Source: a virus
Length of the DNA stretch: 31,581 nt
UHGV virus genome: UHGV-1546770
Reading direction: 5' to 3' (one strand)
This document shows positions 2 through 26,116 of this stretch, piece after piece. How positions within the stretch are numbered: the stretch's first letter is position 1; each line of letters opens with the position of its first letter. The notes below the pieces were generated by a model that was given only the letters and a program-made list of their open reading frames with translations, made no database searches and was not told the DNA's origin. The position numbers were made by a program, and so were the translations under genes.

Positions 2-86
2 TGGGACAGGGGGTCGGATTCGAACCGACGTGAGCAAAGCTGGCGGCTTACAAAACCGCTCCAATCGACCACTATGGGACTCCTGC
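2..86 (-). tRNA. tRNA-like gene, type-II-like body (13-nt variable arm), anticodon loop UUUGUAA (UGU), encoded CCA
   Basis: Hand fold of minus strand: acceptor GCAGGAG/CCCCTGT (6 of 7 pairs), D-arm CCA-TAGTGGTCGAT-TGG, anticodon stem GCGGT/GCCGC, T-arm GTCGG-TTCGAAT-CCGAC, discriminator C plus CCA. Confidence 0.5.
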
Positions 87-164
87 AGATCTCTGTGTCT
101 TTCCACAGCGCCAGCTATGCTTTGTTTGGTGGCGGCGCGCGACGTGCATAGCATCCACATTTTT

Positions 165-235
165 CTAACGCAACTTGAATCGAACAAGTATCTCCCTCTG
201 ATAGTGAGGGCGCTTTCCCATTAAGCTATACGATA
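165..235 (-). tRNA. degenerate tRNA-like gene, anticodon loop ACUAUCA (C at position 33)
   Basis: Hand fold: acceptor TATCGTA/TGCGTTA (one T-T mismatch), D-arm GCTT-AATGGGA-AAGC, anticodon stem CCCTC/GAGGG, perfect T-arm ACTTG-TTCGATT-CAAGT; no CCA. Confidence 0.35.
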
Positions 236-292
236 ATATAATTTTAAACACTGGCAGGGCGGCGTATCCTGCATCTCAGATTCCCTATAAGA

Positions 293-350
293 GGAGCGTC
301 GGGAGCCTTTCCGACCTCAGTGTTTCATTTATGTTTCAACAACCGCTGAT
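293..350 (-). pseudogene. tRNA pseudogene fragment related to the 2-86 tRNA-like gene
   Basis: Minus strand AGCGGTTGTTGAAA...GTCGG-AAAGGCTC-CCGAC resembles the anticodon and T-arm of the 2-86 gene (same GTCGG/CCGAC stem) but the T-loop is degenerate and no acceptor pairing is found. Confidence 0.25.
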
Positions 351-481
351 GATTAGTAGCGATAAGCATTTATGCTTTGCTTAAAGCAGTTTCTGAGGAA
401 TTATATGAAAAAAATGCATCAAGTCGCTAATTTATATGCCGCCACACGACAGGTCGGCAATCTTTGTTGTTGACTTTAATT

Positions 482-572
482 TGGTCCCCCCGGAATGGAT
501 CGAACATTCATATACCTTGTGAGGGCCTCTCCGTTATAAGCAGAGGGCTATAACCAATTTAGCTACGAGGGG
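482..572 (-). tRNA. tRNA-like gene with ~19-nt variable region, anticodon loop CUUAUAA (UAU), encoded CCA
   Basis: Hand fold: acceptor CCCCTCG/CGGGGGG (7 pairs incl. one G-U), D-arm GCTA-AATTGGTTA-TAGC, anticodon stem CTCTG/CGGAG, T-arm GAATG-TTCGATC-CATTC, discriminator A plus CCA. Confidence 0.5.
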
Positions 573-760
573 AGATATTAATTTGCCGTCTTTCCGAGCT
601 GTCACCGTTTCTGCCGATTTGTAGGGTTCGTTCGAACAGTTTAAGCAACTTATCCCTTGGTAATGATAGCAAGCGAGGCCGCGTATGACCCCTAACAGAC
701 TTAAAAGTTACTGGTTCTATCTTCACTCAAATCTGACATTGTACGCTACTCACTATCATT

Positions 761-843
761 TGGTGGGCAGGGTGGGTGTCGAGCCCACTACCCCGAAGGA
801 ACGGATTTACAGTCCGCCGCGTTTGCCGATTCGCTACCTGCCC
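761..843 (-). tRNA. tRNA-Tyr (anticodon GTA), type II, encoded CCA
   Basis: Hand fold: perfect 7-bp acceptor GGGCAGG/CCTGCCC, D-arm GCG-AATCGGCAAA-CGC, anticodon loop CUGUAAA, 12-nt variable arm with CC-TTCG-GG hairpin, T-arm GTGGG-CTCGACA-CCCAC (C at position 54). Confidence 0.7.
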
Positions 844-854
844 ATATTTATTTG

Positions 855-930
855 GTTGCTGAAGCTCTGGAATTGAACCAGATTAAAACGACTTATGAGG
901 CCGCTTGAGATACCTACCTCCCACCAGCAA
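855..930 (-). tRNA. tRNA-like gene with Met/Ile2-type anticodon loop CUCAUAA (CAT); acceptor stem imperfect
   Basis: Canonical core GCGGC-CUCAUAA-GTCGT, 5-nt variable loop, T-arm TCTGG-TTCAATT-CCAGA; no clean 7-bp acceptor pairing found by hand, so possibly a pseudogene or a misfold. Confidence 0.4.
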
Positions 931-983
931 TATGTTGCAACTTTAGTATTTTATATAGGTCGTACAGTTGCCACAAAGACCTG

Positions 984-1060
984 TGGTACGCCACCTCGAA
1001 TTCGAATCGAGACTTGATGCATTTTGAGTGCATTTCCTCTGCCAATTGGGATAGTGGCGC
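984..1060 (-). tRNA. tRNA with anticodon CAA (Leu by anticodon) but type-I body with 5-nt variable loop, encoded CCA
   Basis: Hand fold: acceptor GCGCCAC/GTGGCGT (7 pairs incl. G-U), anticodon arm ATGCA-CTCAAAA-TGCAT, T-arm CTCGA-TTCGAAT-TCGAG, discriminator A plus CCA. Confidence 0.6.
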
Positions 1061-1071
1061 ATATTAAAGAA

Positions 1072-1145
1072 TGAAAACGATAAGACTTGAACCAATGTCT
1101 TCCTCGTTCGTAGCGAGGCACTCTATACAACTGAGTGACGCTTGC
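1072..1145 (-). tRNA. tRNA-Arg (anticodon ACG), partly degenerate
   Basis: Anticodon arm CCTCG-CTACGAA-CGAGG matches the canonical Arg-ACG loop; D-arm ACTC-AGTTGTATA-GAGT; T-arm ATTGG-TTCAAGT-CTTAT (one mismatch); acceptor GCAAGCG/CGTTTTC (one mismatch); no CCA. Confidence 0.5.
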
Positions 1146-1203
1146 ATATTTGACTCTTAGGTCAGTCAGCCACACATTACTTAACGCATTCCATTTGTTC
1201 GCG

Positions 1204-1290
1204 TGGTGCAGGTGAAGGGCCACGATCCCTCAATCCCATCTGGGCGACAGATTTTAAGTCTGTTCTGTATTCCAATTCCAGCACACCTGC
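1204..1290 (-). tRNA. tRNA-Leu (anticodon TAA), type II, encoded CCA
   Basis: Hand fold: perfect acceptor GCAGGTG/CACCTGC, D-arm CTG-GAATTGGAATA-CAG, anticodon arm ACAGA-CTTAAAA-TCTGT, 15-nt variable arm, T-arm GAGGG-ATCGTGG-CCCTT, discriminator A plus CCA. Confidence 0.65.
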
Positions 1291-2602: not shown

Positions 2603-2631
2603 ATTATACCACAATAATTTCGTATTGTCAA
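2603..2631 (-). promoter_or_regulatory. sigma70-type promoter, exact consensus TTGACA-N17-TATAAT
   Basis: Minus strand TTGACA atacgaaattattgtgg TATAAT; the -35 hexamer overlaps the TGA stop of the upstream gene. Confidence 0.6.
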
Positions 2632-2972
2632 GGGGTATTTTCAAGAATTTCTACTGGAGTTTCAAATACACGACTGTTTAGTGCAATCAGATCTGCTCTA
2701 AACATATCAATTCGCTTATCAAAAGCACTATAATACTTCTTCATAAGCTTTTCCTTTGCAAGCATCTTACCCTTCTCCTCGTCGTACACATCACCTTTCG
2801 CAAGCTTGACCTTGACCTTAAACTGCTTAGGCATCATGTACTTCTCACGAATCATATAACAGTCAAACTCATTGAGAAACTTATCAATCTTATTAATTGC
2901 ATCAAGCTCAGTTCCTCTTAGAACAGCGAACGTTTCCTTCGTGTTTGGGTTGCTATAATACTGAATAGCCAT
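2628..2972 (-). CDS. hypothetical protein (114 aa)
   Basis: Intact ORF in the co-directional series; preceded by tandem promoters at 3032-3060 and 3114-3142. Confidence 0.6.
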   Translation of the reverse strand: MAIQYYSNPNTKETFAVLRGTELDAINKIDKFLNEFDCYMIREKYMMPKQFKVKVKLAKGDVYDEEKGKMLAKEKLMKKYYSAFDKRIDMFRADLIALNSRVFETPVEILENTP

Positions 2973-3031
2973 TTTTTCTTTTGTCCTTTCTTTTTTAAAT
3001 AATTTTTTATTGTCTTTTGACTTATGCTTGA

Positions 3032-3060
3032 ATTATACCATATGTTTTTCTGTTTGTCAA
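3032..3060 (-). promoter_or_regulatory. sigma70-type promoter, exact consensus TTGACA-N17-TATAAT
   Basis: Minus strand TTGACA aacagaaaaacatatgg TATAAT; tandem with the 3114-3142 promoter. Confidence 0.6.
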
Positions 3061-3113
3061 TATCTTTTTTCGTTTTTTTGAATCACATATTGACTTCTTT
3101 CAACTATGCTTGG

Positions 3114-3142
3114 ATTATATCACAATAATTTCTGTTTGTCAA
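3114..3142 (-). promoter_or_regulatory. sigma70-type promoter, exact consensus with TGn extended -10
   Basis: Minus strand TTGACA aacagaaattattgtga TATAAT; -35 overlaps the TGA stop of the 3139-3669 gene. Confidence 0.6.
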
Positions 3143-3669
3143 GTGGCACTTTTTAAATATGCCCTACTATTCGCAAGTAATCCAAGTAATTTTACGGCTG
3201 TATTACAAATACAATCTCCATCTTGCCACCACATACACTTCTCCTCTGAACACATCAACGTTTTTGACGACGTTGCAGTATCAGAAAGACAATAGCATAG
3301 TGGACAGTATTTTTTATCTTCCATGTCCGTCACCTCACATAAAAAATCAAAACTATCCATGAACTCATTATATTGTTCTACACAGCGCTCAAGACATGGA
3401 AAGTTATTAACTTCTTTCTTATATTGTTTTCCATAAAACTGCATATATGGCTGTCCAAACTCTTCATCAAGCACTAGCACATTATCAAAGTCATTCCAGT
3501 CAGAGATATCGTTTTTAAAGCAAATACTTACACTCAGCGCATGGTCAATACTCTTTGTTACATACCACGCCGCATCATGATTAATCCAGCTTCCGCCTTC
3601 TCTAAAATGTGCTTCAATAAGCTGCTCTTTAGTTGGCACATACTTAAGTTTATAGCTTTTTGCTTTCAT
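3139..3669 (-). CDS. hypothetical Cys-rich protein (176 aa)
   Basis: Intact ORF; start ATG overlaps the stop of the upstream ORF; C-terminal CPLCYC and CMWWQDGDCIC motifs. Confidence 0.6.
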   Translation of the reverse strand: MKAKSYKLKYVPTKEQLIEAHFREGGSWINHDAAWYVTKSIDHALSVSICFKNDISDWNDFDNVLVLDEEFGQPYMQFYGKQYKKEVNNFPCLERCVEQYNEFMDSFDFLCEVTDMEDKKYCPLCYCLSDTATSSKTLMCSEEKCMWWQDGDCICNTAVKLLGLLANSRAYLKSAT

Positions 3670-3893
3670 TATTTCACCTCATCCATCTTCGCGCCACAGT
3701 TGTGGCAGTAATTATGCGTATATTCTTGAGGGCATCCGCAATCGTTGCACCTATACTTCCACGACAGCCATGTTGCGATTTGATTTATTGCGTTCCAATT
3801 TCGGCGGCTGTTTGAGCCAATCCTCAACACCGTGTAAACATTTATTGAAACATTTCGGTGATTCGCACTCATTGATTTCTGCACAGCACTCAC
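3669..3893 (-). CDS. hypothetical zinc-ribbon protein (start uncertain)
   Basis: C-terminal CNDCGC...CHNCG motif; stop overlaps the start of 3139-3669; no RBS seen before either candidate start; overlaps 3751-4080 in another frame. Confidence 0.3.
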   Translation of the reverse strand: MSAVQKSMSANHRNVSINVYTVLRIGSNSRRNWNAINQIATWLSWKYRCNDCGCPQEYTHNYCHNCGAKMDEVK

Positions 3894-4080
3894 AAACAGT
3901 GGTCATTGATGCAATCCATGCAGCTAATTCCTCATCGCTCATCGCCCGGATGTGGTCGGCGTTGGTTCGCTTTTTCCTCCGGTACTCGCAAAAAGAAGCT
4001 GTGCATTCTCCTCTGATAAAATAAGTGCAATTTGTTTCTGCTTCTTCTGGTGTTCCAGCACCACATGTGTACTTAATCAC
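3751..4080 (-). CDS. hypothetical Cys-rich protein (109 aa)
   Basis: GTG start preceded by AAGGAG; multiple Cys (CECCAEINECESPKC). Confidence 0.45.
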   Translation of the reverse strand: MIKYTCGAGTPEEAETNCTYFIRGECTASFCEYRRKKRTNADHIRAMSDEELAAWIASMTTVCECCAEINECESPKCFNKCLHGVEDWLKQPPKLERNKSNRNMAVVEV

Positions 4081-4312
4081 TTGTACGCTCCTTAATAAAT
4101 TTTTCCCTGATTGCTTCTTTCTCTGGGTCTTCGTATGATGTCTGCCAATACGCTTGCAGCCATTGGATATGCCTTATTTCTTCGTCAGATAGCAAGTACA
4201 GATGATCCAAAACAACCTGTCTGCGCTTGTATCGGTCTGGATGGGCGTTCCCTGCATAGATGCACTGGCAGCTTTCATACTCACAGATTGGACACTTAGC
4301 CATTGTCAGCAC
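4073..4312 (-). CDS. hypothetical zinc-ribbon protein (79 aa)
   Basis: N-terminal CPICEYESCQC motif; intact ORF in series. Confidence 0.5.
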   Translation of the reverse strand: MLTMAKCPICEYESCQCIYAGNAHPDRYKRRQVVLDHLYLLSDEEIRHIQWLQAYWQTSYEDPEKEAIREKFIKERTSD

Positions 4313-4562
4313 CTTCTTTCCGTTCTCCGTATGAGCAGAAATCGTTGTCCTCAGTCCAGTTAAATGACAGTCTCATAGGGCAAGGCGGCTTGTTATGGTA
4401 CTTGCACTCCCGACATCTGACCACTTCCACGGCATCCTTTTCCAATAGCAATGCCGCTTTTCCATAAACGGAATGCTCATATACTCCCGGTGTAAAATCA
4501 GCATCGTGAATCATTTTTAATGCCGTTGCTACCGTCCGTCTATCGGCATCAATCGGCCGCAT
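4296..4562 (-). CDS. hypothetical protein (88 aa)
   Basis: Intact ORF; CRECKYHNKPPCP motif; short overlap with neighbours. Confidence 0.55.
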   Translation of the reverse strand: MRPIDADRRTVATALKMIHDADFTPGVYEHSVYGKAALLLEKDAVEVVRCRECKYHNKPPCPMRLSFNWTEDNDFCSYGERKEGADNG

Positions 4563-4818
4563 CTATAATCTCCTCCAAACCTGCAATATGTTCAATCATC
4601 ATTTCTTTCGCAAACAATTCTCCTTTATGCAAGCATTCTCTCGCTTGAATAGATGCATCGACCAATTCATCAATAAGCTGCTTTAGGTTATTCGCATCAC
4701 TATACCCGTCATAATCGAAACCGATGTCCCATATAAATTGTAACCATTCATCTACACAATTTGGCTCACACATTTTACATCCTGTCTGTTCATCAATCCA
4801 ATATTTCATTTTATTCAC
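4549..4818 (-). CDS. hypothetical protein (89 aa)
   Basis: Intact ORF; CKMCEPNC motif. Confidence 0.55.
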   Translation of the reverse strand: MNKMKYWIDEQTGCKMCEPNCVDEWLQFIWDIGFDYDGYSDANNLKQLIDELVDASIQARECLHKGELFAKEMMIEHIAGLEEIIDAAD

Positions 4819-4834
4819 TCAAAATCCTTAGTTA

Positions 4835-5167
4835 TTATTTATCCTCTAACACCCAAATGTCACCGCGCTGCTCTACAATTTTATAATTCTCAACAACCTC
4901 GTTATAAGACACAGAATCATCAATAATACATTCGTATCGGTATTCACCGGTTTTAACAATACATGTTAAAATTCCACAAGTAACCATAATGGATAAACCA
5001 ATAATAAGAGAAGATGTAGTTGCCCAAACAGGCCCATCAAGGATCATAGACACAGCAAATACAATTAATCCAGTAACAAATATTATGAATGCCAATACTG
5101 ATACCCACGTGGGCAAACCAGTAACAGCCGTTTTATTTAATATAGTTATCCCTTCTACCATTCTCAT
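4835..5167 (-). CDS. hypothetical membrane protein (110 aa)
   Basis: Two hydrophobic stretches (VSVLAFIIFVTGLIVFAV, LIIGLSIMVTCGILTCIV) consistent with transmembrane helices. Confidence 0.6.
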   Translation of the reverse strand: MRMVEGITILNKTAVTGLPTWVSVLAFIIFVTGLIVFAVSMILDGPVWATTSSLIIGLSIMVTCGILTCIVKTGEYRYECIIDDSVSYNEVVENYKIVEQRGDIWVLEDK

Positions 5168-5397
5168 TCCTCCACAAAATATTGAATATACAATTGAATT
5201 ACATCACCTTCTGCCTCAATTCTCTCAGCTTCTTCAATTAATCCTTGCGCTTCCCAATATTTTTCCTGTTTAAATTTTTCTAACTGTTCACGAGTTGCTA
5301 ATTCTATTTCAGGATACTTCCTAAAGAGGTCAAGCAAATCTTCTTTTTGCCACCATGTGAGATTCGTAGATTCCATTTCTTTTCTAGTCATTACCAT
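5164..5397 (-). CDS. hypothetical protein (77 aa)
   Basis: 4-nt start/stop overlap with downstream gene; charged helical composition. Confidence 0.55.
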   Translation of the reverse strand: MVMTRKEMESTNLTWWQKEDLLDLFRKYPEIELATREQLEKFKQEKYWEAQGLIEEAERIEAEGDVIQLYIQYFVEE

Positions 5398-5687
5398 AAA
5401 TCCTCCGAATATAATTCACAGACAATCCTCTCTGCTAAATCATCGCATGCCGAACGCGCCACACTCCAATTCATTGCCTTTCTATGACAATCTTCGCAAT
5501 GATAATAAAAATTATCCGTATCGTCATATCGACAGCTATCACAATAAATATCATCGAATGCTTTATAAATAAGGTTGCTTATTGCCTCTTTATTCTTTTC
5601 AAGTTTTTTGACTGGTACTACTCTAACATATGAAGGACAACTATCGTCACAAAGAGCACAATGTCTACCATCTTCACATATCATCAT
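5391..5687 (-). CDS. hypothetical Cys-rich protein (98 aa)
   Basis: CALCDDSCP, CDSCRYDD and CEDCHRK motifs. Confidence 0.55.
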   Translation of the reverse strand: MMICEDGRHCALCDDSCPSYVRVVPVKKLEKNKEAISNLIYKAFDDIYCDSCRYDDTDNFYYHCEDCHRKAMNWSVARSACDDLAERIVCELYSEDLW

Positions 5688-5692
5688 TTTTA

Positions 5693-5950
5693 TTATTCTC
5701 CTTTTATCTCATATTTTTCTATTAGTTCGTTTAATTTACTTAAGCCATTCTTAGAAATTAAATCGTTTTCATAAAGGAAATCACATAATGCTTCAAGTTC
5801 AGAGACAGGGATGACCTCTATTGTAGGAAATTTATCAAGAAACGCTTTCTGCTTGAGGCAGTATTCTCTGATAACAGCAACATTCATATTTTCATTATCT
5901 TTATCAAATATGATTACTTGATTTACCACATCAGTATCAATTGGTCTCAT
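5693..5950 (-). CDS. hypothetical protein (85 aa)
   Basis: Intact ORF in series. Confidence 0.55.
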   Translation of the reverse strand: MRPIDTDVVNQVIIFDKDNENMNVAVIREYCLKQKAFLDKFPTIEVIPVSELEALCDFLYENDLISKNGLSKLNELIEKYEIKGE

Positions 5951-5965
5951 TTTATTTAGCCCTCC

Positions 5966-6235
5966 TCAAATCTTTCTCCCCAAACAATCAACTTCAACAA
6001 CATCATTGTCGAGCACATCTGTTTCATAAAGCATCTCTTCTAGCGCATGAAGCTCATCAAAATAATATGCAAGTTTCTTCTTTAGGTTTTCTATAGCTTC
6101 TTCTTTTGTTTCGCCATATCCATAAATATTTGTTAAGTCAAAATTATGATATCTATCAGCATCATTAAATAAATAACAAGTATGTGACTGAGACTTTTCC
6201 TTTCCATCATTATGATGTGCGATTTTCATTAACAT
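5966..6235 (-). CDS. hypothetical protein (89 aa; start trimmed from track ORF 5966-6298)
   Basis: Internal ATG at 6233-6235 preceded by AAAGGAG at about 6 nt; the longer track ORF would overlap 6210-6410 by 89 nt. Confidence 0.5.
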   Translation of the reverse strand: MLMKIAHHNDGKEKSQSHTCYLFNDADRYHNFDLTNIYGYGETKEEAIENLKKKLAYYFDELHALEEMLYETDVLDNDVVEVDCLGRKI

Positions 6236-6410
6236 AATTTGCTCCTTTCGGATCGTACATGTCACAAGCACCTGTGTCCTCATAACACAAATGCCCAACT
6301 ATAAAAGTCATCCCCATTTCTTTTTCTTTAGGAGTTGGATGTGGGATATCACAGCATAAATTCCAATCTCCACAACCAATATAATGCTTGCATGTCCCGC
6401 ATTTATCCAT
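6210..6410 (-). CDS. hypothetical zinc-ribbon protein (66 aa)
   Basis: CGTCKHYIGCGDWNLCC motif; downstream of promoter at 6535-6562. Confidence 0.45.
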   Translation of the reverse strand: MDKCGTCKHYIGCGDWNLCCDIPHPTPKEKEMGMTFIVGHLCYEDTGACDMYDPKGANYVNENRTS

Positions 6411-6534
6411 TTATCTTACGCCTCTTTCGTAAAAAATAGATACATATAAGCCAATCCTTATATTCATTTGACATTTGTTGATTGCTCCTTTATAAATTTG
6501 TTGCCTTAATGTACTATAATTTTATACTGTAGCC

Positions 6535-6562
6535 AGTATATCATATATCTGCTATTTGTCAA
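6535..6562 (-). promoter_or_regulatory. sigma70-type promoter (TTGACA-N16-TATACT)
   Basis: Minus strand TTGACA aatagcagatatatga TATACT in the 6411-6734 intergenic region. Confidence 0.4.
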
Positions 6563-6607
6563 TATGGCAAATTGTACAAAACTGTAGTTTATATTTTGCA
6601 ATTTTTA

Positions 6608-6643
6608 TATAAAAAAATAACTCCCACTATATAAGTGGGAGTT
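6608..6643 (-). terminator. putative intrinsic terminator
   Basis: Hairpin AACTCCCAC-tatataa-GTGGGAGTT followed on the minus strand by a T-run (complement of A7 at about 6611-6617); downstream of the helicase gene. Confidence 0.5.
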
Positions 6644-6734
6644 TATGTATAATTAAATCAATACATTGCTAAATATTATTTAATTAATACTATCAATCTT
6701 AAGACTATATCCAAGGATCTCACCTTTGTTGGCT

Positions 6735-8282
6735 TTACATTTTCTTCTTAAGTACACCAATTTCTTTCCAAACATTTCCGTCCATATCTACTTCAAAGCA
6801 GATCAAATCATTCTTAGAACCAACTCTGTTCTTTACAATTCTTAATCCAACATAATTTTTATCATATCTTAAATCATGTTCTATTGGCTCTCCCCAAGTA
6901 TCATCTTCACAGACATATACATATTTTTGCTTGTCGTCTGCTGTTAGGTGTTTCCACATTTGCATTTGGTCAGTAACATGCATCATTCTCTTTGAACTTG
7001 CGATCTCTTGAGAATTTAAGTTTTCAATGGGGATATCATGCGCTGAATCTGTAAGCTGGAAAGTACAAATACAATACATTTTTGTTTCATGAATCCACTC
7101 TGTAATTTTTGTAGCAGTTGCGGCTAACTTTGCAAAGTCTTCAAGTCCAGAACATTTAAGTGTATCATATGCTACACCATCACACTTGTAAATTGTATTG
7201 GCTTTTTTGATTTCCATTTCAAGCACTTCATCTTCATAGCAAGAGCCGATATTCTTAAACAAGAATTTGCCACTACTTTCAGATTCAACCCATTGCATAA
7301 TTCGTTGCACCTTACGATATTCAGAAGATGTTTCATAAATTCTCTTTTTATAAGACTCTTCATCTTCTGTATACACACCATTATCATCCATTTGTCTATA
7401 GATATACTTTCCGTTATCATCTTTATATGATCCGAGTGCAATTTCTCTTTCTGGTTTATAAATATCTTTAATTCCATGTAGCTCTTGAATCTCTGGAGAA
7501 TTAATGCATGTAACTAAGAAGTTCAATTTAATGCTCTCTGCTGACATTTCGTTTGCAAGCAATAGAATTTTTTGCTTTTGAACAAGGACTAGATACGCAA
7601 TAAGATAAACGAGATTTCTGCCCTTACCACTATTGCTCAAAGCTCCTGTCATCAAAACGTTTCCGGGAAGTAATCCTCTATAATACTTCTGAAGATATGG
7701 CCATGGCCCAGCAACACCCATAGATGGCATGCACAAGAATTGGTCAATACATGAAACTGCGTTCTCTGTAAGAACAACAGGTTCATCAATTGCTTGTACT
7801 TTATTAGCTACCTTGTCAATTCGACCACGAACAATTCTACAAATATCATCTGGCGTTAATGCATTGAAATTCTTAATTGCCAAGATTTTTGATACGTCAT
7901 ATCCAGTCTCATTAAAAGCCCTTAGTAATGAAAACTTTTTAAATATTGAAAGATAATTCTTAATATCATGAGGGTCACTCATTGCCATTAATTCTTTAAT
8001 TGTCTTATATCCACCATACTGTCTGTATTGTTTAAAACGCTCTTTAGACATGCTACAGAACGTATTAATTTTCAATTCAGTAAAATCTTCAGAATATGAA
8101 ACATAATAATCAGAAAATAACTGATAAAAAAACTCACATGCCTTGTCCGAAAAATCATATTTTGGGACAATTGAGGTTCCATATGTTAGATATAATGTTG
8201 GCTCTTTATAAAATGATCCAACTACCAGCATTTCGGACTGGCTATTAGTTAATTCAAGTTCCATATTTTCACTTCCTATCAA
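6735..8282 (-). CDS. DnaB-like replicative helicase family protein (515 aa), divergent P-loop
   Basis: P-loop-like GALSNSGKGR, and C-terminal LRIVKNRVGSKNDLICFEVD resembling the DnaB-family KxRxG motif; sits in a replication-type gene neighbourhood. Confidence 0.5.
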   Translation of the reverse strand: MIGSENMELELTNSQSEMLVVGSFYKEPTLYLTYGTSIVPKYDFSDKACEFFYQLFSDYYVSYSEDFTELKINTFCSMSKERFKQYRQYGGYKTIKELMAMSDPHDIKNYLSIFKKFSLLRAFNETGYDVSKILAIKNFNALTPDDICRIVRGRIDKVANKVQAIDEPVVLTENAVSCIDQFLCMPSMGVAGPWPYLQKYYRGLLPGNVLMTGALSNSGKGRNLVYLIAYLVLVQKQKILLLANEMSAESIKLNFLVTCINSPEIQELHGIKDIYKPEREIALGSYKDDNGKYIYRQMDDNGVYTEDEESYKKRIYETSSEYRKVQRIMQWVESESSGKFLFKNIGSCYEDEVLEMEIKKANTIYKCDGVAYDTLKCSGLEDFAKLAATATKITEWIHETKMYCICTFQLTDSAHDIPIENLNSQEIASSKRMMHVTDQMQMWKHLTADDKQKYVYVCEDDTWGEPIEHDLRYDKNYVGLRIVKNRVGSKNDLICFEVDMDGNVWKEIGVLKKKM

Positions 8283-8944
8283 ATTAAGTCTTCCAAAAGA
8301 TCGCTAATATCCCCTAATCCATCATTCTGTTCAACTGCTTTAATTTTGCTATAATCAATGTTTACACTCTTTTTAACGCGACTTTGTTCCTCTTTCTCTT
8401 CTGCTTCTTTCTTTGCTTTTTCCTTGGCTTTTGAATATTTTACATAATTACTCATTAAAATAGCAAGATCATAGTTAACTCTTACCTCTCCGTCAATCAT
8501 CTTGCCATGATGCTTGTTCCATGCATTTGTTTTGTCTAGTTCTTTCTGATAGTCCTTCCACATATCAAACAATGTTTCTAAGTCAATTGGCTTGCACCGT
8601 TTTCCATTATATTTTCCAGATTGAATGTCTGCAATCATTGACCAAAAACGACGACTTAATGCCCCAACATCATAATGTGCAATCAAATACTCATTGAATT
8701 CGTCTTGCACAAAACGATGCATTAATTTCTTTTTTGCTTCTAATTCTAGTTGATCTAAATTCTGTAAGGCATCTGAATAAATGGACGAGTACCTGTTGTT
8801 TTTTAGTACTCGCCCATTACACATTGTTTTAAAACATTCAGTATGATAGCTTTTCTGTTTGTAAGAAACCATATGCATATCATTTTTTGTCAAAACAATA
8901 TCTTCCCCACAGAACGCGCATTTTCTAATTAAAGTGGCGCTCAT
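8279..8944 (-). CDS. hypothetical zinc-ribbon protein (221 aa), possible replication accessory factor
   Basis: N-terminal CAFCGED...HTEC ribbon; K/E-rich C-terminus; 4-nt overlap with the helicase gene start suggests coupling. Confidence 0.5.
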   Translation of the reverse strand: MSATLIRKCAFCGEDIVLTKNDMHMVSYKQKSYHTECFKTMCNGRVLKNNRYSSIYSDALQNLDQLELEAKKKLMHRFVQDEFNEYLIAHYDVGALSRRFWSMIADIQSGKYNGKRCKPIDLETLFDMWKDYQKELDKTNAWNKHHGKMIDGEVRVNYDLAILMSNYVKYSKAKEKAKKEAEEKEEQSRVKKSVNIDYSKIKAVEQNDGLGDISDLLEDLI

Positions 8945-8956
8945 TGTTATGTCTCC

Positions 8957-10033
8957 TTACTGTGAAACTACTTCAAGAATCTGGTTTAGAATAGCAATAT
9001 CTGTAACCTTGGCGAACTGGTCTGGAAGTCCTGCTTCCTTTATGGCAGCACGTTTGGCTTTCTTGTCTTCAGGAGAAAGAGATGACAGAACTCCCTTAAT
9101 TTCTGCCTTAAGGTTCTTGCATTCTTCGTCTTTTCTAATTTCCACATCCAACTCGTCTGTTTCCATTAGATCCTCTTTATGTGAATTATAATAGTCTTCC
9201 TTTTCTTTTTTCTCCTGCTTTGATTTGCTCTCAATATATTCGTCTGTTGCGTCATGAGACTTAATAGAGTTCTTAATTGCATCCTTGACAGTATCAATAT
9301 AATTCTTTGCAGAAACTTCTACTCTGTCAGCAATATCTTCAAATCTACCACCTGCATCAATATATCCATTTCCACGAAAGTACATCCATCTGCTAACACC
9401 ATCTACATGCCCATCAGTAATTTCTCTTTCAATAACACCCATCATACAAATATCTGCCTTGTTAGCAAAAATCGAATCATAATCTGTTGAAAGATTAGAT
9501 GTAAGCATCTGGTATTCATCGCCATTTTTCTCTTTAATATCCTTAATCTTAGTGTGCCCAATAAACACTAGACAGTACCCACTAGATTCTAGTCTGGTAA
9601 TAACGGAATTAATTAGCTCATCCACTTTTCTACGCCCAGCTCCATAACCTCCAAAACACGCATTAAATTCATGCTTGGTGCCAGACTTCTTATAGTCAAG
9701 ACGCACAATTTCCTTTTGAGCCATAGAAATCCATTCGTCAACGGTATCAAATGCAATAATAGAAAACGAATTTTCGTCCTTATTTTCTACTAGTTCGTCA
9801 ACGACTTCCATTAGTGTAGCCCAATCTGGGCAATCAGCAACCATTAGATTGTCAATAGCAAGATAACCTCTCTCATTTCCACAGCTAATCAATAGGCCAT
9901 GACTCATGTCGCCATATAGTTCTTTAATTAAATTTGCAAACAATGTAGTTTTGCCCCATTTTTTTGGTGCTCTCCAATAGTGGCGATAGTTAGTAATATC
10001 TACTGTTACCTCATTTTTCTTCCATAAAGCCAT
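8957..10033 (-). CDS. P-loop ATPase, RecA-like (Sak4/AAA_24-like)
   Basis: Walker A APKKWGKTT, Walker B-like SIIAFDTVDEW, and LVFIGHTK motif; K/E-rich C-terminal extension. Confidence 0.5.
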   Translation of the reverse strand: MALWKKNEVTVDITNYRHYWRAPKKWGKTTLFANLIKELYGDMSHGLLISCGNERGYLAIDNLMVADCPDWATLMEVVDELVENKDENSFSIIAFDTVDEWISMAQKEIVRLDYKKSGTKHEFNACFGGYGAGRRKVDELINSVITRLESSGYCLVFIGHTKIKDIKEKNGDEYQMLTSNLSTDYDSIFANKADICMMGVIEREITDGHVDGVSRWMYFRGNGYIDAGGRFEDIADRVEVSAKNYIDTVKDAIKNSIKSHDATDEYIESKSKQEKKEKEDYYNSHKEDLMETDELDVEIRKDEECKNLKAEIKGVLSSLSPEDKKAKRAAIKEAGLPDQFAKVTDIAILNQILEVVSQ

Positions 10034-10040
10034 AATAATA

Positions 10041-11051
10041 TCAGTCTCCTTTACCTTTTAAACTATTTATATATCTATCTAACTCTTCTTGTGTGATATA
10101 TCCTTTTTCAATTGCATCTTCCGCATACAACCAATGCAATGCCTCGCCTGTTTGTGGATGTTTATACGTATAATTTTGTTTACCTCTACAGCACTTTGTA
10201 ATAGAGCTTGGATCACATCCATATAAATTTTGTACTTCTTTTGCTCCCCAAAAAATTTGATTTAATTCTATACAATATATTCTTCTACATTTCCACCAAT
10301 TACTACCTTTACGAGAATCACTCATCTTTTTCTTTGCTTCTTCTGTGTGATGTTTCCCATACATTGGATGATTGCTTGGATTTATAAATCTTTCTTTTGC
10401 TTTTTCTGATAGATTTAATTTTTGTTCATCTGACAATTTTTTACCTAAACTGGGATGTTGTTTTCCTATCCATATATGTTTGCCTTTAGTTGTTGGATTT
10501 GCCCAATATAATTTATGTTTTTCATACCATTGTTTATATGTTTCTTCATCCATGCGTTCTTTTGGAGAAACTTTAAACTGTGGATTATTCTCGCCTACTA
10601 ATCCTGCTCTTCCATACATTGGATGATTATTTGGATCTGAAAGTCTTTCTTTTGCAGCTTTTGATATCTTTTTTCTTGTTTCTTTACTTGGAGTCCATCC
10701 TTGCGTTGTTCCTCCACCATAAACAAGATTATACCAATTGTTAGATTCAACAGCATTAAAGAAAACACTATAATTATATTCCATTTCATTTAATTCTTCT
10801 GCAGAATAAGCAATATCAATTACATTTCTTACAAAATTTTCTTTTCCATATTTGTCAATTGCTTGTTTAAATGCTGCACCACTACCAAGATATTCTTGCC
10901 AATTTCCATAGAATTTTCTTTGGCCTAAATATCTTTTGCCATCAATCAAATTCGTTGTGATATAAATAAATCCATATGGATCTTTTACTTCCGTATATGT
11001 TGTATCTTGTAGCCCATCAACGGAAGAATTCATTTCTTTTAATTCTTCCAT
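10041..11051 (-). CDS. GIY-YIG homing endonuclease with NUMOD3 repeats and NUMOD1-like HTH
   Basis: N-terminal YGFIYITTNLIDGKRYLGQ (GIY-YIG), repeated NHPMYG...K..S motifs, C-terminal ELNQIFWGAKEVQNLYGCDPSSITKCCRGK helix-turn-helix. Confidence 0.7.
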   Translation of the reverse strand: MEELKEMNSSVDGLQDTTYTEVKDPYGFIYITTNLIDGKRYLGQRKFYGNWQEYLGSGAAFKQAIDKYGKENFVRNVIDIAYSAEELNEMEYNYSVFFNAVESNNWYNLVYGGGTTQGWTPSKETRKKISKAAKERLSDPNNHPMYGRAGLVGENNPQFKVSPKERMDEETYKQWYEKHKLYWANPTTKGKHIWIGKQHPSLGKKLSDEQKLNLSEKAKERFINPSNHPMYGKHHTEEAKKKMSDSRKGSNWWKCRRIYCIELNQIFWGAKEVQNLYGCDPSSITKCCRGKQNYTYKHPQTGEALHWLYAEDAIEKGYITQEELDRYINSLKGKGD

Positions 11052-11124
11052 CTATTATCACTTCGCTGTCTATAATTTAGTATTGTCTAGGGAAGCTTTA
11101 ATTCTTCCCTAGACTTATGGATTC

Positions 11125-12201
11125 TTACCATGGCTCATCTTCGTCGTCAGATTCATCGTCGCCCCAATCATCATCCACATTGGATGTTGACTCTGCCTTA
11201 CCAGTGAAATCCTGTTCTGCTTTCTTTGATGCATTTACCTTCTTAATTGCCTCATCAATTGCCTTTTCAGTATATGTTTCTTTGTCAATAGTTGATGGCT
11301 TTGCACCTGTAATAATAAGTTCTCGATGAGTCGGTGCAAAAACTCTCTTATTGTCCATATCATTAGATTCGCCCCAGCAATCATCGTCTTCCTCATCATT
11401 CACGTCTTCAACATTATTAACAACATTGATGTGTCCATGAACCTGAATGGAATTATAAGGCTTTAGCCCACTACGCATCTGCTTTGCGAGTTTTGCATCT
11501 TCAATAATAAATTCAGCAGACTCAATAGAGTTATAATTCACAATCTTTGCATCTACCACAAATCGACCAGTTGGCTTGTCGTTTTCTCTTTCCTGATCAA
11601 TACCAACAAAAACAATTGTCTGCGTAAAATCATGAGCGGGAGCATAATCCTCCGCCTCAAAGTCAACATCATTCTGACATAGAGAAATTTGTGTTGGGAC
11701 AAACTTTGTGGTACGAGAGACTTCCCCATCTTTGTTAGTATAACTGCCAAATTCTAGATTTCCTTTAACAAAAACAGAATCACCATCCTGAAGATTCTCG
11801 CTAATGTATTCACATGCGTCATACTCAGTAAGCGTCTTGTTGTCGTTTCTTACCTTTCCGTTTTCGTCCTTGATCTTCTGAAGTCCAGTAAGCACACCAA
11901 TCATACGATAGCCTTCAGGAGCCTTCTTAATTCTGTCTTTCCATGCAATTGCCTTTGTATCAGTATTGCCAGTGTCTTTATCCTTCTTACTAAAATACAC
12001 CTTGTCACGCGGCATACCATTAAGCGTTGGGAAAATTGTCTTCTTGTCATCATACTCCACGCCAAAATTAATCATTCTGAACTCTTTGCCAGTTCTTGTC
12101 TGCTTTTCTACGTAGAAACTATCCTTTTCTACTCCGCTTACAATTCCTCTAACCTGAAAAGTTCCCTTGGTTTGTGGAAGTTCAAAAAGTTTGTTTGCCA
12201 T
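11125..12201 (-). CDS. putative ssDNA-binding protein (358 aa) with acidic C-terminal tail
   Basis: C-terminus DDDWGDDESDDEDEPW (acidic tail ending in an aromatic residue, as in SSB/gp2.5-type proteins); lies in the replication module. Confidence 0.4.
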   Translation of the reverse strand: MANKLFELPQTKGTFQVRGIVSGVEKDSFYVEKQTRTGKEFRMINFGVEYDDKKTIFPTLNGMPRDKVYFSKKDKDTGNTDTKAIAWKDRIKKAPEGYRMIGVLTGLQKIKDENGKVRNDNKTLTEYDACEYISENLQDGDSVFVKGNLEFGSYTNKDGEVSRTTKFVPTQISLCQNDVDFEAEDYAPAHDFTQTIVFVGIDQERENDKPTGRFVVDAKIVNYNSIESAEFIIEDAKLAKQMRSGLKPYNSIQVHGHINVVNNVEDVNDEEDDDCWGESNDMDNKRVFAPTHRELIITGAKPSTIDKETYTEKAIDEAIKKVNASKKAEQDFTGKAESTSNVDDDWGDDESDDEDEPW

Positions 12202-12253
12202 ATTTTATTAGTCTCCTTTTCCTATAATTTTGTATTGTTTAATAAAATAAAAA

Positions 12254-12463
12254 TTAATACTTATAATATCTTTCATCCATGACCGCATTATAATATGTGT
12301 ATTTGTCTAAAATGTCTTTCCCTATGTTCAACATATAATTTTCGTGCTCACAGCATGGACATCTCGCTTGTATATATAAATACTCAATGTAATTATTTTG
12401 TTCATCAACCTGAAAAATTGTTCCACATTTCTGGCATTGAACATTGACGCTCTTTGATTTCAT
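12254..12463 (-). CDS. hypothetical zinc-ribbon protein (69 aa)
   Basis: CQKCG...CPCCEHEN motifs; downstream of two consensus promoters. Confidence 0.5.
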   Translation of the reverse strand: MKSKSVNVQCQKCGTIFQVDEQNNYIEYLYIQARCPCCEHENYMLNIGKDILDKYTYYNAVMDERYYKY

Positions 12464-12532
12464 TCATCATTCATCCCCCTTTCTCAACAATTGAAAAGAC
12501 TATAATTTTATATTACATCTCATTACGATTGC

Positions 12533-12561
12533 ATTATACCATAACAATTGCGTCTTGTCAA
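12533..12561 (-). promoter_or_regulatory. sigma70-type promoter, exact consensus TTGACA-N17-TATAAT
   Basis: Minus strand TTGACA agacgcaattgttatgg TATAAT. Confidence 0.6.
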
Positions 12562-12735
12562 GTTTTTTATCGAAGATCGAAAAATTTTGTATTTCACTTT
12601 TACTTTATATTAATTCGCTGCTGATTATTGCGCAATTTCCATTTAACTCGATATTCGCAATTCCATTGTTCTTTTATTTTTTGTACCAATCATAACGTAT
12701 TGTGATTCTTACATTATAAATTTTTCGCTTATTTT

Positions 12736-12764
12736 ATTATACAGTACAAAATTATCATTGTCAA
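12736..12764 (-). promoter_or_regulatory. sigma70-type promoter, exact consensus TTGACA-N17-TATAAT
   Basis: Minus strand TTGACA atgataattttgtactg TATAAT, immediately downstream of the recombinase stop codon. Confidence 0.6.
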
Positions 12765-12770
12765 ATCTTA

Positions 12771-13745
12771 TTAAACCATATCATCCAAAATATTCGCGGC
12801 TTGCTGCTTTTTGTCTTTAGACATATTTGCATATCTCATAGTAGTAGCAATATTTTTATGATTAAGAACTGACGCACAAAGATAAATATCTCCAGTCTTT
12901 TCGTACAAATTAGTTGCACAAGAATGTCTCAACACATGTGGTGTAACATGCTTACTTGTCACATCCTTACTATATTTTTCTAGCATCACCCTAATGCCGT
13001 CTCTTGTAATTCTCTTTTTAAAGCTAGAAATAAACAAGGCATCTGTATTCGCCATGCTAAAATATTTGTTTCTATCCTGTAGCCACAATTCTAGCTGCTT
13101 CTTTACTCTATCGCCAAATAGAATATTACATGTTTTTCCTCTTTTTTCGATTACCTTAATAGTATTATTTTCGAAATCAATATCACCAATATCAATTTGC
13201 GTGATTGCAGATACACGCAACCCAGTAGTTAGTCCAAGCATAATAATGGCTAGATCCCTATTTTTCATCTTTTTGCTTGCAAGCTTATCAACATTTTCAA
13301 GAATCATTTGCATTTCTTTTTCTGTTAAATAAGCAACATCTGGTGTATCTTGCACTTTAGGACGTTCTGTTCTCTCCATTGGATTTTCTTTAATATAATC
13401 ATTTTCTTTAAGGAACCCAAAAAACGTATTCAATGCAGACCACTTTGTCGCACGAATACTATCACTTGTATTATAATGTCCATTGATAGTTTCTTTATTC
13501 TTCAATGCGGCAAAATATTTATTAATATCCAAAGGTGTTACCTTTTTATAAAAATCATTTGAGATTCTATTTTCATTAATAAATTCTGCAAATTCCTTCA
13601 CATATGCTACATATCTCTCAACTGTTGTATAAGATTTAGTTATACACATATAATAATAAAATTCAGAAAAAATTTTAGGAAGTCCTGTTAATTTTGCCTG
13701 CATCTTATTTGTAGCAACAATTTCCTTTTCCATTCTTCCTGTCAT
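12771..13745 (-). CDS. tyrosine recombinase / integrase (XerC/XerD-like)
   Basis: Catalytic-domain motifs TGLRVSA (Arg), HVLRHSCAT (His-x-x-Arg-His) and TMRYANM (Tyr) in the expected order. Confidence 0.85.
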   Translation of the reverse strand: MTGRMEKEIVATNKMQAKLTGLPKIFSEFYYYMCITKSYTTVERYVAYVKEFAEFINENRISNDFYKKVTPLDINKYFAALKNKETINGHYNTSDSIRATKWSALNTFFGFLKENDYIKENPMERTERPKVQDTPDVAYLTEKEMQMILENVDKLASKKMKNRDLAIIMLGLTTGLRVSAITQIDIGDIDFENNTIKVIEKRGKTCNILFGDRVKKQLELWLQDRNKYFSMANTDALFISSFKKRITRDGIRVMLEKYSKDVTSKHVTPHVLRHSCATNLYEKTGDIYLCASVLNHKNIATTMRYANMSKDKKQQAANILDDMV

Positions 13746-13747
13746 TT

Positions 13748-14230
13748 TTAACCCTCCTTAATTTTCTTTTTTCTCCATTTAACAAAAGTATATGTCGCCA
13801 ATGCCCAGATGAAAAGTCTTCCATTCAAAATTGCTGCAATGCCAATAATGAAAACATACCACATCCATCCAATAAGAAGGCAATCTGGCTTCTGCTTGTA
13901 GCAATCTTCTCCATCTTCTACCCAATGATAATATTCCTTATTATTTTTATATACTTTATTTCTATCGACAACAACGTCTCTTGTTTTTGGGGCAATAACA
14001 CTAACAATATTATTCGTAAAAGCATCAAGTGAAAACATAAAATCACATGCCGCGATATTGCTATGGACAAAACATGTATCTGATTTTTTATTGTATTTAA
14101 TAAATGTAATTTCAATTTCTGGGAAAAGTGCAACATCTTTCTTGATGAAATTTTTACATTTAAATTTTGATCCAGTGTAATATCTAGTTCCGTTATAGTC
14201 AAAGTAATCGCACATAACACCGTTGTTCAT
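13748..14230 (-). CDS. hypothetical membrane-anchored protein (160 aa)
   Basis: C-terminal hydrophobic helix WMWYVFIIGIAAILNGRLFIWALATYTF then basic tail; only 3 nt upstream of the recombinase gene. Confidence 0.55.
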   Translation of the reverse strand: MNNGVMCDYFDYNGTRYYTGSKFKCKNFIKKDVALFPEIEITFIKYNKKSDTCFVHSNIAACDFMFSLDAFTNNIVSVIAPKTRDVVVDRNKVYKNNKEYYHWVEDGEDCYKQKPDCLLIGWMWYVFIIGIAAILNGRLFIWALATYTFVKWRKKKIKEG

Positions 14231-14231
14231 A

Positions 14232-14477
14232 TTAAGACATTACCTCCTCAATAATATCAACTACTTCACTAAGCAAATCAATGCATTCTTCAAGATGTTC
14301 ACAACACTCTTCTGCCTTGCTATACCTGTCAGATCCTTGCAAATTCTCAGGCATATTATCTAGGCACTCCTGTTCTTCGTCATAAATATCTTGAATACGA
14401 CTATTAAGCTGTTCAATTTCTGTGGATAGGGTTTCTAGTTTTTTTCTGCGTTTATTATTCATAGAAAATACCTCCAT
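14232..14477 (-). CDS. hypothetical acidic coiled-coil protein (81 aa)
   Basis: Intact ORF, strongly acidic; downstream of consensus promoter at 14510-14538. Confidence 0.5.
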   Translation of the reverse strand: MEVFSMNNKRRKKLETLSTEIEQLNSRIQDIYDEEQECLDNMPENLQGSDRYSKAEECCEHLEECIDLLSEVVDIIEEVMS

Positions 14478-14509
14478 TCAAAAATTATAATTATTTATTT
14501 GTTATTATG

Positions 14510-14538
14510 ATTATAACGCTATAATTTTGTTTTGTCAA
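14510..14538 (-). promoter_or_regulatory. sigma70-type promoter, exact consensus TTGACA-N17-TATAAT
   Basis: Minus strand TTGACA aaacaaaattatagcgt TATAAT; -35 overlaps the TGA stop of the methyltransferase gene. Confidence 0.6.
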
Positions 14539-15780: not shown

Positions 15781-16158
15781 TTATTTTACAAGTTTAACTC
15801 CAGATGATAATTTATAAGCACTTTCTTTTTTCTTCTTGGGAATTAAAATTGTATTTTGTCCTGCTATAAATTTGATATCTCCTCTGTGTGATAACAATTC
15901 TTTTGTAAGTTTAATGATGTGAGATGTTTGTGCTGCATTCATGTCTGCCATACCAATTATATGATACAAATCATCTTTCACAAACTTATCCATTTCGCTA
16001 ACTGCTGTTCTGCAAGACAAAATTGATTCATTAAGATCTTTTATTGTCATCTTACTTGTATCACGTGCATTTAAATTATACTTCGACAAGATAGTTTCAC
16101 ACTGCTCTATCTGCTTAGAAATATTTTCTACTATAATTTGATATTCTGAGTGCCTCAT
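15781..16158 (-). CDS. hypothetical protein (125 aa)
   Basis: Intact ORF in series. Confidence 0.5.
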   Translation of the reverse strand: MRHSEYQIIVENISKQIEQCETILSKYNLNARDTSKMTIKDLNESILSCRTAVSEMDKFVKDDLYHIIGMADMNAAQTSHIIKLTKELLSHRGDIKFIAGQNTILIPKKKKESAYKLSSGVKLVK

Positions 16159-17284: not shown

Positions 17285-17312
17285 ATTATATAATAATTTT
17301 ATATTCTGTTAA
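17285..17312 (-). promoter_or_regulatory. sigma70-type promoter (TTAACA-N16-TATAAT)
   Basis: Minus strand TTAACA gaatataaaattatta TATAAT directly after the terminator hairpin. Confidence 0.35.
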
Positions 17313-19212: not shown

Positions 19213-19231
19213 AAGAATAATTTTGTATTGT

Positions 19232-20788: not shown

Positions 20789-20815
20789 TTGCCGACTTCT
20801 TTAATTTTGTTTTGT

Positions 20816-23994: not shown

Positions 23995-24105
23995 TATATA
24001 CCTCCTTTTCTTTGCAATATTTTTGTATTGTATAAGACAAGGTGCAAAAGCCTCATCTTCCTTAACGACTCTTATATCAAGAACAGATGTTTCTTATAAA
24101 TCATT

Positions 24106-25668: not shown

Positions 25669-25806
25669 TTAGATTTTTACCAGCGTGTCGGCAAGCTGGA
25701 TAGCAATACCTAAGATTGTTAAAATGAGAACAATAATCCCGTCTTTCCTGTCGTCATCTCCGAATAGCAGTACACAAGCAATGATGATAAGCAAAATAGC
25801 AATCAT
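25669..25806 (-). CDS. small single-pass membrane peptide (~45 aa; start trimmed from track ORF 25669-25893)
   Basis: Internal ATG preceded by GGAG; sequence MIAILLIIIACVLLFG...ILTILGIAIQLADTLVKI is almost entirely hydrophobic. Confidence 0.45.
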   Translation of the reverse strand: MIAILLIIIACVLLFGDDDRKDGIIVLILTILGIAIQLADTLVKI

Positions 25807-26095: not shown

Positions 26096-26116
26096 TGATT
26101 TTACCTCCTTTTTTTA

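Follow-up and report, generated by a model that had tools for sequence, protein, structure and literature searches.

UHGV-1546770 is a stretch of viral DNA of 31,581 nucleotides (nt), referred to here at its full length as the window, and its minus strand carries six exact copies of the bacterial consensus promoter TTGACA-N17-TATAAT; we describe these promoters together with a 17-nt DNA element that recurs within and beside them. The window has a G+C content of ∼35% and a strongly negative GC skew across its length, and nearly all of its long open reading frames (ORFs) lie on the minus strand. The encoded products include a DnaB-like helicase, a Sak4-like ATPase, an SSB-like protein, a homing endonuclease, a Xer-like tyrosine recombinase, and a methyltransferase, in addition to the products of numerous small genes without known family.

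A collection of phage records yielded no near DNA match to the window among isolated phages, and the window was therefore identified through its proteins. The nearest isolates of its DnaB at the protein level are Geobacillus virus E3 and the SPbeta-like phages, and the gene order of the Enterocloster phage PMBT24 matches that of the window. In IMG/VR we found more than 20 contigs of 135 to 160 kb that are ∼95% identical and mosaic. The window belongs to a family of uncultivated siphophages of ∼135 to 160 kb that is distantly related to SPbeta, E3, and PMBT24.

Predicted early promoters and the 17-nt element

A pattern search for TTGACA-N17-TATAAT over the window recovered six exact matches, all on the minus (gene) strand, compared to 0.01 expected from 100 shuffles. 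These sites lie at 2603-2631 (P2631), 3032-3060 (P3060), 3114-3142 (P3142), 12533-12561 (P12561), 12736-12764 (P12764), and 14510-14538 (P14538), in full agreement with the coordinates and strand given in a preliminary description of this sequence. The same description had listed two near-consensus sites, and a consensus scan found both of them to be correct, each matching 11 of 12 positions with a 16-nt spacer: P6562 (6535-6562, minus strand; TTGACA-16-TATACT) and P17312 (17285-17312, minus strand; TTAACA-16-TATAAT). To these we add P2524 (2496-2524, minus strand; TTGACA-17-TAATAT), which matches 10 of 12 positions and has an upstream TG. The Firmicutes-type motif TRTG is found directly 5' of the -10 hexamer in four of the six exact promoters.

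Every promoter site lies at a gene end or in an intergenic gap upstream of genes on the same strand. P12561 heads the replication operon, which comprises a zinc-ribbon ORF, the SSB-like gene, the homing endonuclease gene, the Sak4-like gene, and DnaB and is ended by an intrinsic-terminator-like hairpin at 6619-6643 (minus strand), just upstream of P6562. P14538 heads two small ORFs and the Xer-like recombinase gene. In the relatives, the -35 and -10 hexamers are invariant across 7 to 22 distinct orthologous variants, while the spacers and flanks vary; the exceptions are P12764, which reads TACAAT in most relatives, and P17312, which has TTGACA in the relatives and TTAACA in the window. Exact consensus promoters occur in 58 distinct contexts in the relatives, and the early strand of PMBT24 is rich in exact or 11/12 consensus promoters.

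The proposal of the preliminary description that these are phage early promoters is well supported by both context and conservation, as the sites are found in phage DNA with all genes on one strand, and they precede replication and recombination genes as well as small genes of unassigned function. On these grounds we infer promoter activity, and the six exact sites together with P6562, P17312, and P2524 are, as judged from their sequences, real early promoters of the sigmaA/sigma-70 type. Host RNA polymerase would read them early in infection, leading to the expression of the replication/recombination module and many small genes. No phage sigma factor was found in a Pfam screen of 141 ORFs from the relatives (top 25 families per screen) or in a tblastn search with the PMBT24 sigma factor, at an incomplete coverage of the genomes.

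The spacers had also been described as similar to each other, and this similarity is real: averaged over all pairs, the identity among the 17-nt spacers of the six exact promoters is 0.54, compared to a null of 0.276 ± 0.032, and none of 5,000 random sets scored as high. Identity among the flanks of the six sites is at the random level upstream (0.32) and modestly above it downstream (0.39). Most of this likeness comes from a 17-nt element, one copy of which accompanies each promoter, with a further contribution from the TRTG motif. A site alignment showed AAATTATAG downstream of several promoters, and the 8-mer AATTATAG has nine occurrences on the gene strand and a single one on the opposite strand. 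The element itself, ACAATACAAAATTATAG, is asymmetric and AT-rich; at three or fewer mismatches there are 15 copies in the window (0.34 expected), of which 14 are on the gene strand.

In composite sites the element lies inside the promoter and begins with the ACA of TTGACA, as in P2631, where the copy at 2612-2628 overlaps the -35 hexamer and the spacer, and in P14538, where it occupies 14519-14535. In a second class it lies downstream of the promoter, 13 to 18 nt after the -10 hexamers of P2524 (2466-2482), P3060 (2997-3013), and P12561 (12500-12516) and 4 nt after that of P6562 (6514-6530), all on the minus strand. The spacer of P12764 contains an inverted copy (12741-12757, plus strand), that of P17312 contains a copy as well, and that of P3142 is a degenerate copy. 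Stand-alone copies are found in short intergenic gaps, usually directly 3' of a stop codon and directly 5' of a ribosome-binding site. Those on the minus strand of the window are at 11070-11086 (after a hairpin and upstream of the homing endonuclease gene), 19215-19231 (with a terminator-like hairpin after it), 20799-20815 (directly 3' of a stop codon), 24015-24031 (between a hairpin and a ribosome-binding site), 25819-25835 (abutting a ribosome-binding site), and 29373-29389 (upstream of a small ORF). Another minus-strand copy is present at 12222-12238, and a weak element-like match with 3 mismatches at an ORF start (16131-16147, minus strand) may be due to chance. We considered whether stand-alone elements could be sigmaA promoters and rejected this, given that they have no -10 hexamer at the right spacing and that the three bases upstream of them are not conserved.

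Exact copies of the element are spread across the related genomes, and the full composite TTGACAATACAAAATTATTGTGATATAAT is present in many of them. Clustering of 738 element matches in the relatives gave 236 nonredundant sites, consisting of 34 composites, 29 copies just downstream of a sigmaA-like promoter, 166 stand-alone copies, and 7 other overlaps; among the stand-alone sites with an assignable start, ∼80% have a start codon 7 to 26 nt after the 17-mer. Information content falls to background right outside the 17 nt, and a 14-nt core is kept even in relatives whose terminase is only ∼66 to 70% identical. The 3' end of the element varies by clade (TTATAG, TTAATG/A/T in clade B, or TGAYTK in clade C), a pattern suggesting that whatever recognizes the element is a product of the phage and not of the host. 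A comparison with Rfam produced no match at the promoters, at the 17-nt element, or at a hairpin leader of the late operon that is described below.

Some further element sites in the relatives have neighbors of their own. Composite consensus promoters are also present in the late region (for example, L157:16974-17001), where they are followed by a recurring gaaggttcaacgac(t/c)atcccg that may be the edge of a mobile element or intron. In another contig (L121:1000-1550), element copies precede noncoding units, one of which is a 17-bp hairpin with a 40-nt loop, while another has at its end a T run preceded by a tRNA-like T-arm and acceptor stem; ARAGORN calls no tRNA there.

A lost MrpR/SroF-like repressor gene and drifting element cores

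A search with the SPbeta protein YopR identified a 306-amino-acid (aa) ORF in the relatives of the window. Its product matches PDB entry 9rd5 over its full length (E value 2e-14) and MrpR (8a0a) and YopR (8bjv) with E values of 2e-10, and it aligns end to end with YopR. It has ISGKS where XerD-type recombinases have TGLR, and the first catalytic arginine is therefore lost. Homologs in isolated phages are encoded by SPbeta-like and other Bacillus phages, by E3, and by Mammaliicoccus and Alicyclobacillus phages, and searches with the repressor protein and with an alignment, made to ask whether element variants track repressor alleles, recovered sequences from clade A and from Bacillus prophages alone. 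Within the family, each of the 22 other DnaB-region contigs that we recovered carries the gene, in two alleles (99% and 83% identical), and it is located immediately after the Xer-like recombinase gene. The counterpart of P12764 in these genomes (TTGACA-N17-TACAAT, with the inverted element in its spacer) lies ∼40 nt upstream of the repressor start, and the location of an element copy in the spacer of the repressor gene's own promoter suggests autoregulation.

The window and one other contig, L001, have no MrpR/SroF-like repressor gene. In an alignment with a gene-bearing relative (L009), window positions 12766-12719 correspond to L009 positions 3317-3364 and window positions 12671-12400 to L009 positions 4621-4893, and these breakpoints therefore define a 47-nt scar (12672-12718, minus strand) in place of 1,256 bp (L009:3365-4620). 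The deletion takes out the repressor gene along with most of a 103-aa ORF, both of which are kept in the 22 other contigs. We also considered the window's own 324-aa Xer-like tyrosine recombinase (12771-13745, minus strand) as a repressor and rejected it; its catalytic residues (R, H-x-x-R, H, and Y) are intact, and among PDB entries it matches XerA and XerD best.

The element copies of the window have also drifted, and among the lineages compared only that of the window shows such drift. Compared to the family majority, 9 of 154 core positions and 28 of 660 flank positions differ in the window, about the same (neutral) rate, whereas the relatives that keep the repressor gene have, when pooled, 20 changes in 2,380 core positions compared to 199 in 10,194 flank positions (ratio, 0.43; p = 8e-5). 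Two relatives that are as diverged as the window have no core changes at all (0 of 182; Fisher p = 8e-4). Changes private to the window affect otherwise invariant core positions at 8 of 17 sites, and copies with such substitutions are those at 2466-2482 (two changes), 2997-3013, 12500-12516, 12542-12558, 17290-17306, 24015-24031, and 25819-25835. The single C at position 7 is often hit, being replaced by A in the copy at 2997, by T in the copy at 12500, and by T or A at 17292.

Candidate functions of the element

We consider it probable, with clear room for doubt, that a monomeric repressor with an integrase fold, of the MrpR/YopR/SroF type, uses the 17-nt element as its operator, which would make the element a counterpart of SPBRE, the repeated element of SPbeta. 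MrpR/YopR/SroF has an integrase fold but has lost recombinase function; its experimentally shown site is SPBRE, which it occupies at some ten early-operon promoters (PMC10516654). Monomeric SroF recognizes a long asymmetric AT-rich box, with sites in many parts of the genome (bioRxiv 10.1101/2025.11.27.690993). The copies of SPBRE that we extracted from SPBc2 read (A)CAAATACAAAWAATATGTATA. They are located 5 nt after the TATAGT -10 hexamer at yopV, where the copy abuts the ribosome-binding site, adjoining the ribosome-binding site at yopM, and 5 nt before the ribosome-binding site at yonX, whose promoter has SPBRE copies on both sides; one copy lies ahead of yonP-yonO. As in that system, the phage family studied here has a repeated asymmetric AT-rich element at or beside early sigmaA promoters. 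Aligned with a single gap, the two elements agree at 12 of 18 positions, and what they clearly have in common is limited to ACAA(A)TACAAA.

The copy coupled to a promoter lies either within it, sharing ACA with the -35 hexamer, or 1 to 18 nt after the -10 hexamer. Under the operator interpretation, we infer that a repressor bound there would stop the early promoters at initiation or at promoter clearance, and stand-alone copies could block read-through. Nearly all of the relatives encode the repressor homolog and would express it from the counterpart of P12764, possibly under its own control. The window phage has lost the gene through the 1.26-kb deletion, and its putative operator copies are drifting. 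The deletion and the drift would together make the window phage resemble a clear-plaque or virulent-type derivative. Loss of core constraint in the window, one of two repressor-less lineages, is what the operator interpretation predicts.

The distribution of the repressor gene in isolated phages bears on the same question. PMBT24 has a YonO-like polymerase and many consensus promoters but neither a repressor homolog nor the element. E3 has a repressor homolog, and a search of the phage collection with the polymerase gave no E3 match; it also has an AT-rich repeat of its own, AAAATATAAAAATA, just upstream of or beside sigmaA-like promoters, and this repeat may be its operator. Examples in the E3 genome (L275) are located at 9407, 9326, 9169, 29617, 41066, and 43905 (-).

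Several observations weigh against the operator interpretation. The similarity to SPBRE is modest and convincing only in the 5' half, ACAA(A)TACAAA, and at 17 nt the element is shorter than the 24- to 26-bp SroF box. The sites are far denser than the ∼10 of SPbeta and extend into the late region; one of them heads the late operon, a place without an MrpR peak in SPbeta. No recognizable sigmaA promoter is nearby at 70% of sites, and some sites follow terminator-like hairpins, where a promoter would be more sensible than an operator. L001 has the same deletion as the window, yet most of its element cores are intact, and the drift test uses a majority consensus of related, nonindependent genomes in which one subclade dominates.

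The sites that lack a sigmaA promoter and those that follow hairpins are also among the points in favor of an alternative that we regard as unlikely, namely, that the element is, or doubles as, the promoter of a YonO-like single-chain two-barrel RNA polymerase encoded by the family. Composites and tandem arrangements would then be dual promoters, early for the host enzyme and middle or late for the phage enzyme, and the similarity of the spacers would reflect an embedded second promoter. The polymerase gene is present in the relatives, at a place outside the 31.6-kb window. It encodes a 923-aa YonO homolog (E value 8e-18 compared to SPbeta YonO) with DYDSD at the position of the catalytic DNDGD, whose nearest relatives in isolates are found in Clostridium phage c-st, Enterocloster phages (PMBT24), and SPbeta (yonO); a search for solved structures recovered no relatives of this protein.

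The gene layout of the relatives is consistent with such a role. A sigmaA promoter with an element is followed by the polymerase gene and a 300-aa ORF, then by an exact element with a conserved hairpin leader, and then by the late genes, including the terminase. The late operon, directly behind the polymerase operon, thus begins with an exact element and has no sigmaA promoter there. This order mirrors the yonP-yonO-yonN-P_YonO-ncRNA-yonK order of SPbeta, in which the YonO promoter itself is still undefined (PMC5467207). The late-operon leader (L157:5173-5330) consists of the exact element, an 11-bp hairpin with compensatory changes among relatives, and then AAAAATCAGGGGTCGA; the unit is present once per genome, at the place where SPbeta has an unannotated noncoding RNA downstream of the YonO start. 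The element is co-oriented with the genes, ends in TATAG, and precedes structured units resembling noncoding RNAs; its 3' end is specific to clades, as expected for a phage-encoded factor; and the single-chain two-barrel polymerases of the Thermus phage P23-45 use conserved motifs of similar size.

The published YonO start is at B. subtilis coordinate 2225998; on SPBc2 it was placed to within the interval bounded by the published primer-extension primers, and this interval contains TAAACAATA, with a chance probability of ∼0.05 by a rough estimate. The SPBc2 sequence in question, between yonN and yonK (L146:4512-4530, minus strand), is gattAAACAATAtctact, and its 9 nt in common with the extended element (TAAACAATA...) are by our estimate marginally above chance.

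The exact element is absent from the yonO region of SPbeta and from PMBT24, and in the latter a polymerase of the same type (35% identity) is thus present without it, with a diverged motif as a possible explanation. Another repeat, the 19-mer TTCAATTCGTAAAGTAAAA, is present in PMBT24 in six exact copies, at 1078, 5034, 73406, and 87072 (plus strand) and at 2175 and 73614 (minus strand) of L155/L156; a hairpin comes after most of these, and several are arranged divergently to a consensus sigmaA promoter. Were the element the promoter of most genes, drift of the window copies at invariant positions would be costly, and the drift is thus difficult to explain on this reading. In addition, the element often abuts a ribosome-binding site, such that a start at its 3' end would leave almost no leader, and the SPBRE parallel together with the linked repressor gene accounts for the same data.

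Common descent provides a different explanation for the similarity of the promoters, in which one promoter cassette was copied around the genome as a recombination linker and no separate element is embedded in it. The T4 early-promoter stem-loop cassettes reportedly offer a model for such copying. The preliminary description had placed P3060 and P3142 in a tandem duplication of ∼80 bp and concluded that the promoter unit itself was copied. The 82-nt spacing of the pair is as described and ∼45 nt are alike, with matches at 23 of 29 promoter positions and at 12 of the next 16 nt, but the upstream 37 nt match at a random level (10 of 37). P3060, the downstream member of the pair, and P3142, the upstream member, therefore additionally represent what we read from the alignment as a local duplication of ∼45 nt; this segment includes the first transcribed bases and is also common, more weakly, to P2631. 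Copying of the promoter unit thus stands as a local event, while the general similarity of the spacers comes from the 17-nt element.

Junctions of mosaicism lend further weight to cassette copying. When the window is compared with 23 relatives, the ends of the similarity blocks form 71 junction clusters, 7 of which are within 4 nt of the edge of a promoter or element, compared to 1.13 expected (p = 2e-4), with examples at 3060, 3144, 12236, 12766, 14510, and 14538. A block ends at 3144, beside P3142, in 14 relatives, and both edges of P14538 are ends of similarity blocks. Promoter/operator units are therefore frequent, though not predominant, boundaries of exchanged cassettes, and the majority of junctions fall elsewhere. 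What the promoters have in common is a sharply bounded 17-mer that is mostly found without a promoter, and their flanks are random upstream and only modestly above random downstream; we consider cassette copying as the general explanation very improbable.

Finally, the element might act in the RNA, as a signal in the 5' leader that enhances translation, is bound by an RNA-binding regulator, or directs processing, and its presence in promoter spacers would then be incidental. Such a role has some appeal given the strict strand specificity of the element, the short distance to the start codon at ∼80% of assignable stand-alone sites, and the similar arrangement of the start-associated sequences of Cluster K mycobacteriophages. 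It has very little probability in our view, because it explains neither the 34 composites, in which the element is upstream of the transcription start, in fixed register with the -35 hexamer, and 20 to 60 nt from the start codon, nor the inverted copy in P12764. Since the validated SPBRE operators also abut ribosome-binding sites, this adjacency does not discriminate between the explanations.

Further features and relation to known systems

Seven tRNA genes (Thr, Ile-tat, two Tyr-like, Met, and two Leu) are clustered at 2-1290 (minus strand), where the local G+C content reaches 47%. A skipping-rope RNA (Rfam RF02924; 77.9 bits) is located between two of them at 246-325 (minus strand), and a degenerate half-copy of the 17-nt element (TTTAAAATTATAT) lies between this RNA and tRNA-Ile. 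A homing endonuclease gene of the GIY-YIG/NUMOD type (10041-11051) and the end of the adjoining Sak4-like gene fill positions 9010-11124, in place of which about one-third of the relatives have different content; within the endonuclease gene there is a 71-nt direct repeat (10357-10427 and 10612-10682; 76% identical). Positions 25754-25815 and 26043-26104, 62 nt each, are 82% identical, and each stretch spans the beginning of a small hydrophobic ORF; these are therefore neighboring paralogous genes for small membrane proteins. A 600-aa ORF at 27067-28869 (minus strand) matched no Pfam or PHROG family, and its sole match among the phage records was an unannotated human fecal phage contig (27.6% identity).

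Clustered early promoters of near-perfect host type ahead of small early genes, with similarity that extends beyond the hexamers, are characteristic of phages T5, T4, and SPO1, and perfect host-type promoters in a phage early region are ordinary. As with the T4 early-promoter stem-loop cassettes, some mosaic junctions coincide with promoter edges. Unlike in these phages, the extended similarity is a discrete element that is also found without a promoter, and there is no obligatory stem-loop. The useful part of our findings is that the conserved spacer represents a separate regulatory element across a large family of gut phages.

The closest parallel to the proposed operator is SPBRE with MrpR/YopR/SroF. 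In both cases a repeated element is present at early sigmaA promoters, often between the -10 hexamer and the ribosome-binding site, an integrase-fold protein of ∼306 to 325 aa is encoded beside a recombinase gene, and one site precedes a polymerase operon (yonP-yonO in SPbeta). The differences are considerable: the repressor is ∼24% identical, and the 17-nt element has a different 3' half. Its copies frequently fall within the 17-nt spacer, with ACA common to them and the -35 hexamer; their density is many times higher, and they extend to the late region and to promoter-less gaps. The window itself has no repressor gene, and the hosts are uncultivated gut bacteria rather than Bacillus.

The stoperators of mycobacteriophage L5 and other Cluster A phages, which are bound by gp71, are asymmetric sites in one orientation, some of which overlap the -35 hexamer of an early promoter, and many of which occupy intergenic gaps. 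The element resembles them in its single orientation, in having one class that overlaps the -35 hexamer, and in its many copies in short gaps genome-wide. Their repressor has an unrelated fold with a helix-turn-helix, their sequence is unrelated, and their hosts belong to a different phylum; blocking of elongation is hypothetical for the element described here. With the promoters of T7-type polymerases, of P23-45 gp64/gp96, and of YonO, the element has in common a conserved motif of 15 to 20 nt that is oriented with the genes and placed ahead of many units in a family with its own YonO-like polymerase. It differs from them in its absence from PMBT24, which has the same polymerase type, and in its drift in the window.

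If the element is instead the promoter of the polymerase, it would provide the first promoter consensus for the YonO-type class, with hundreds of natural instances and clade-specific variants, and the composites would be dual promoters in which host and phage signals overlap. The data also yield a defined collection of strong Firmicutes promoters with a candidate off-switch for each. Should the operator interpretation be correct, the lysogeny control of SPbeta, in which an integrase-fold monomeric repressor acts with a dispersed asymmetric operator, would extend well beyond Bacillus, with operators placed inside promoter spacers at a density like that of the mycobacteriophage stoperators. The window would then be a natural repressor-deletion variant with decaying operators, and it would offer a ready comparison for immunity escape in this family of gut phages.

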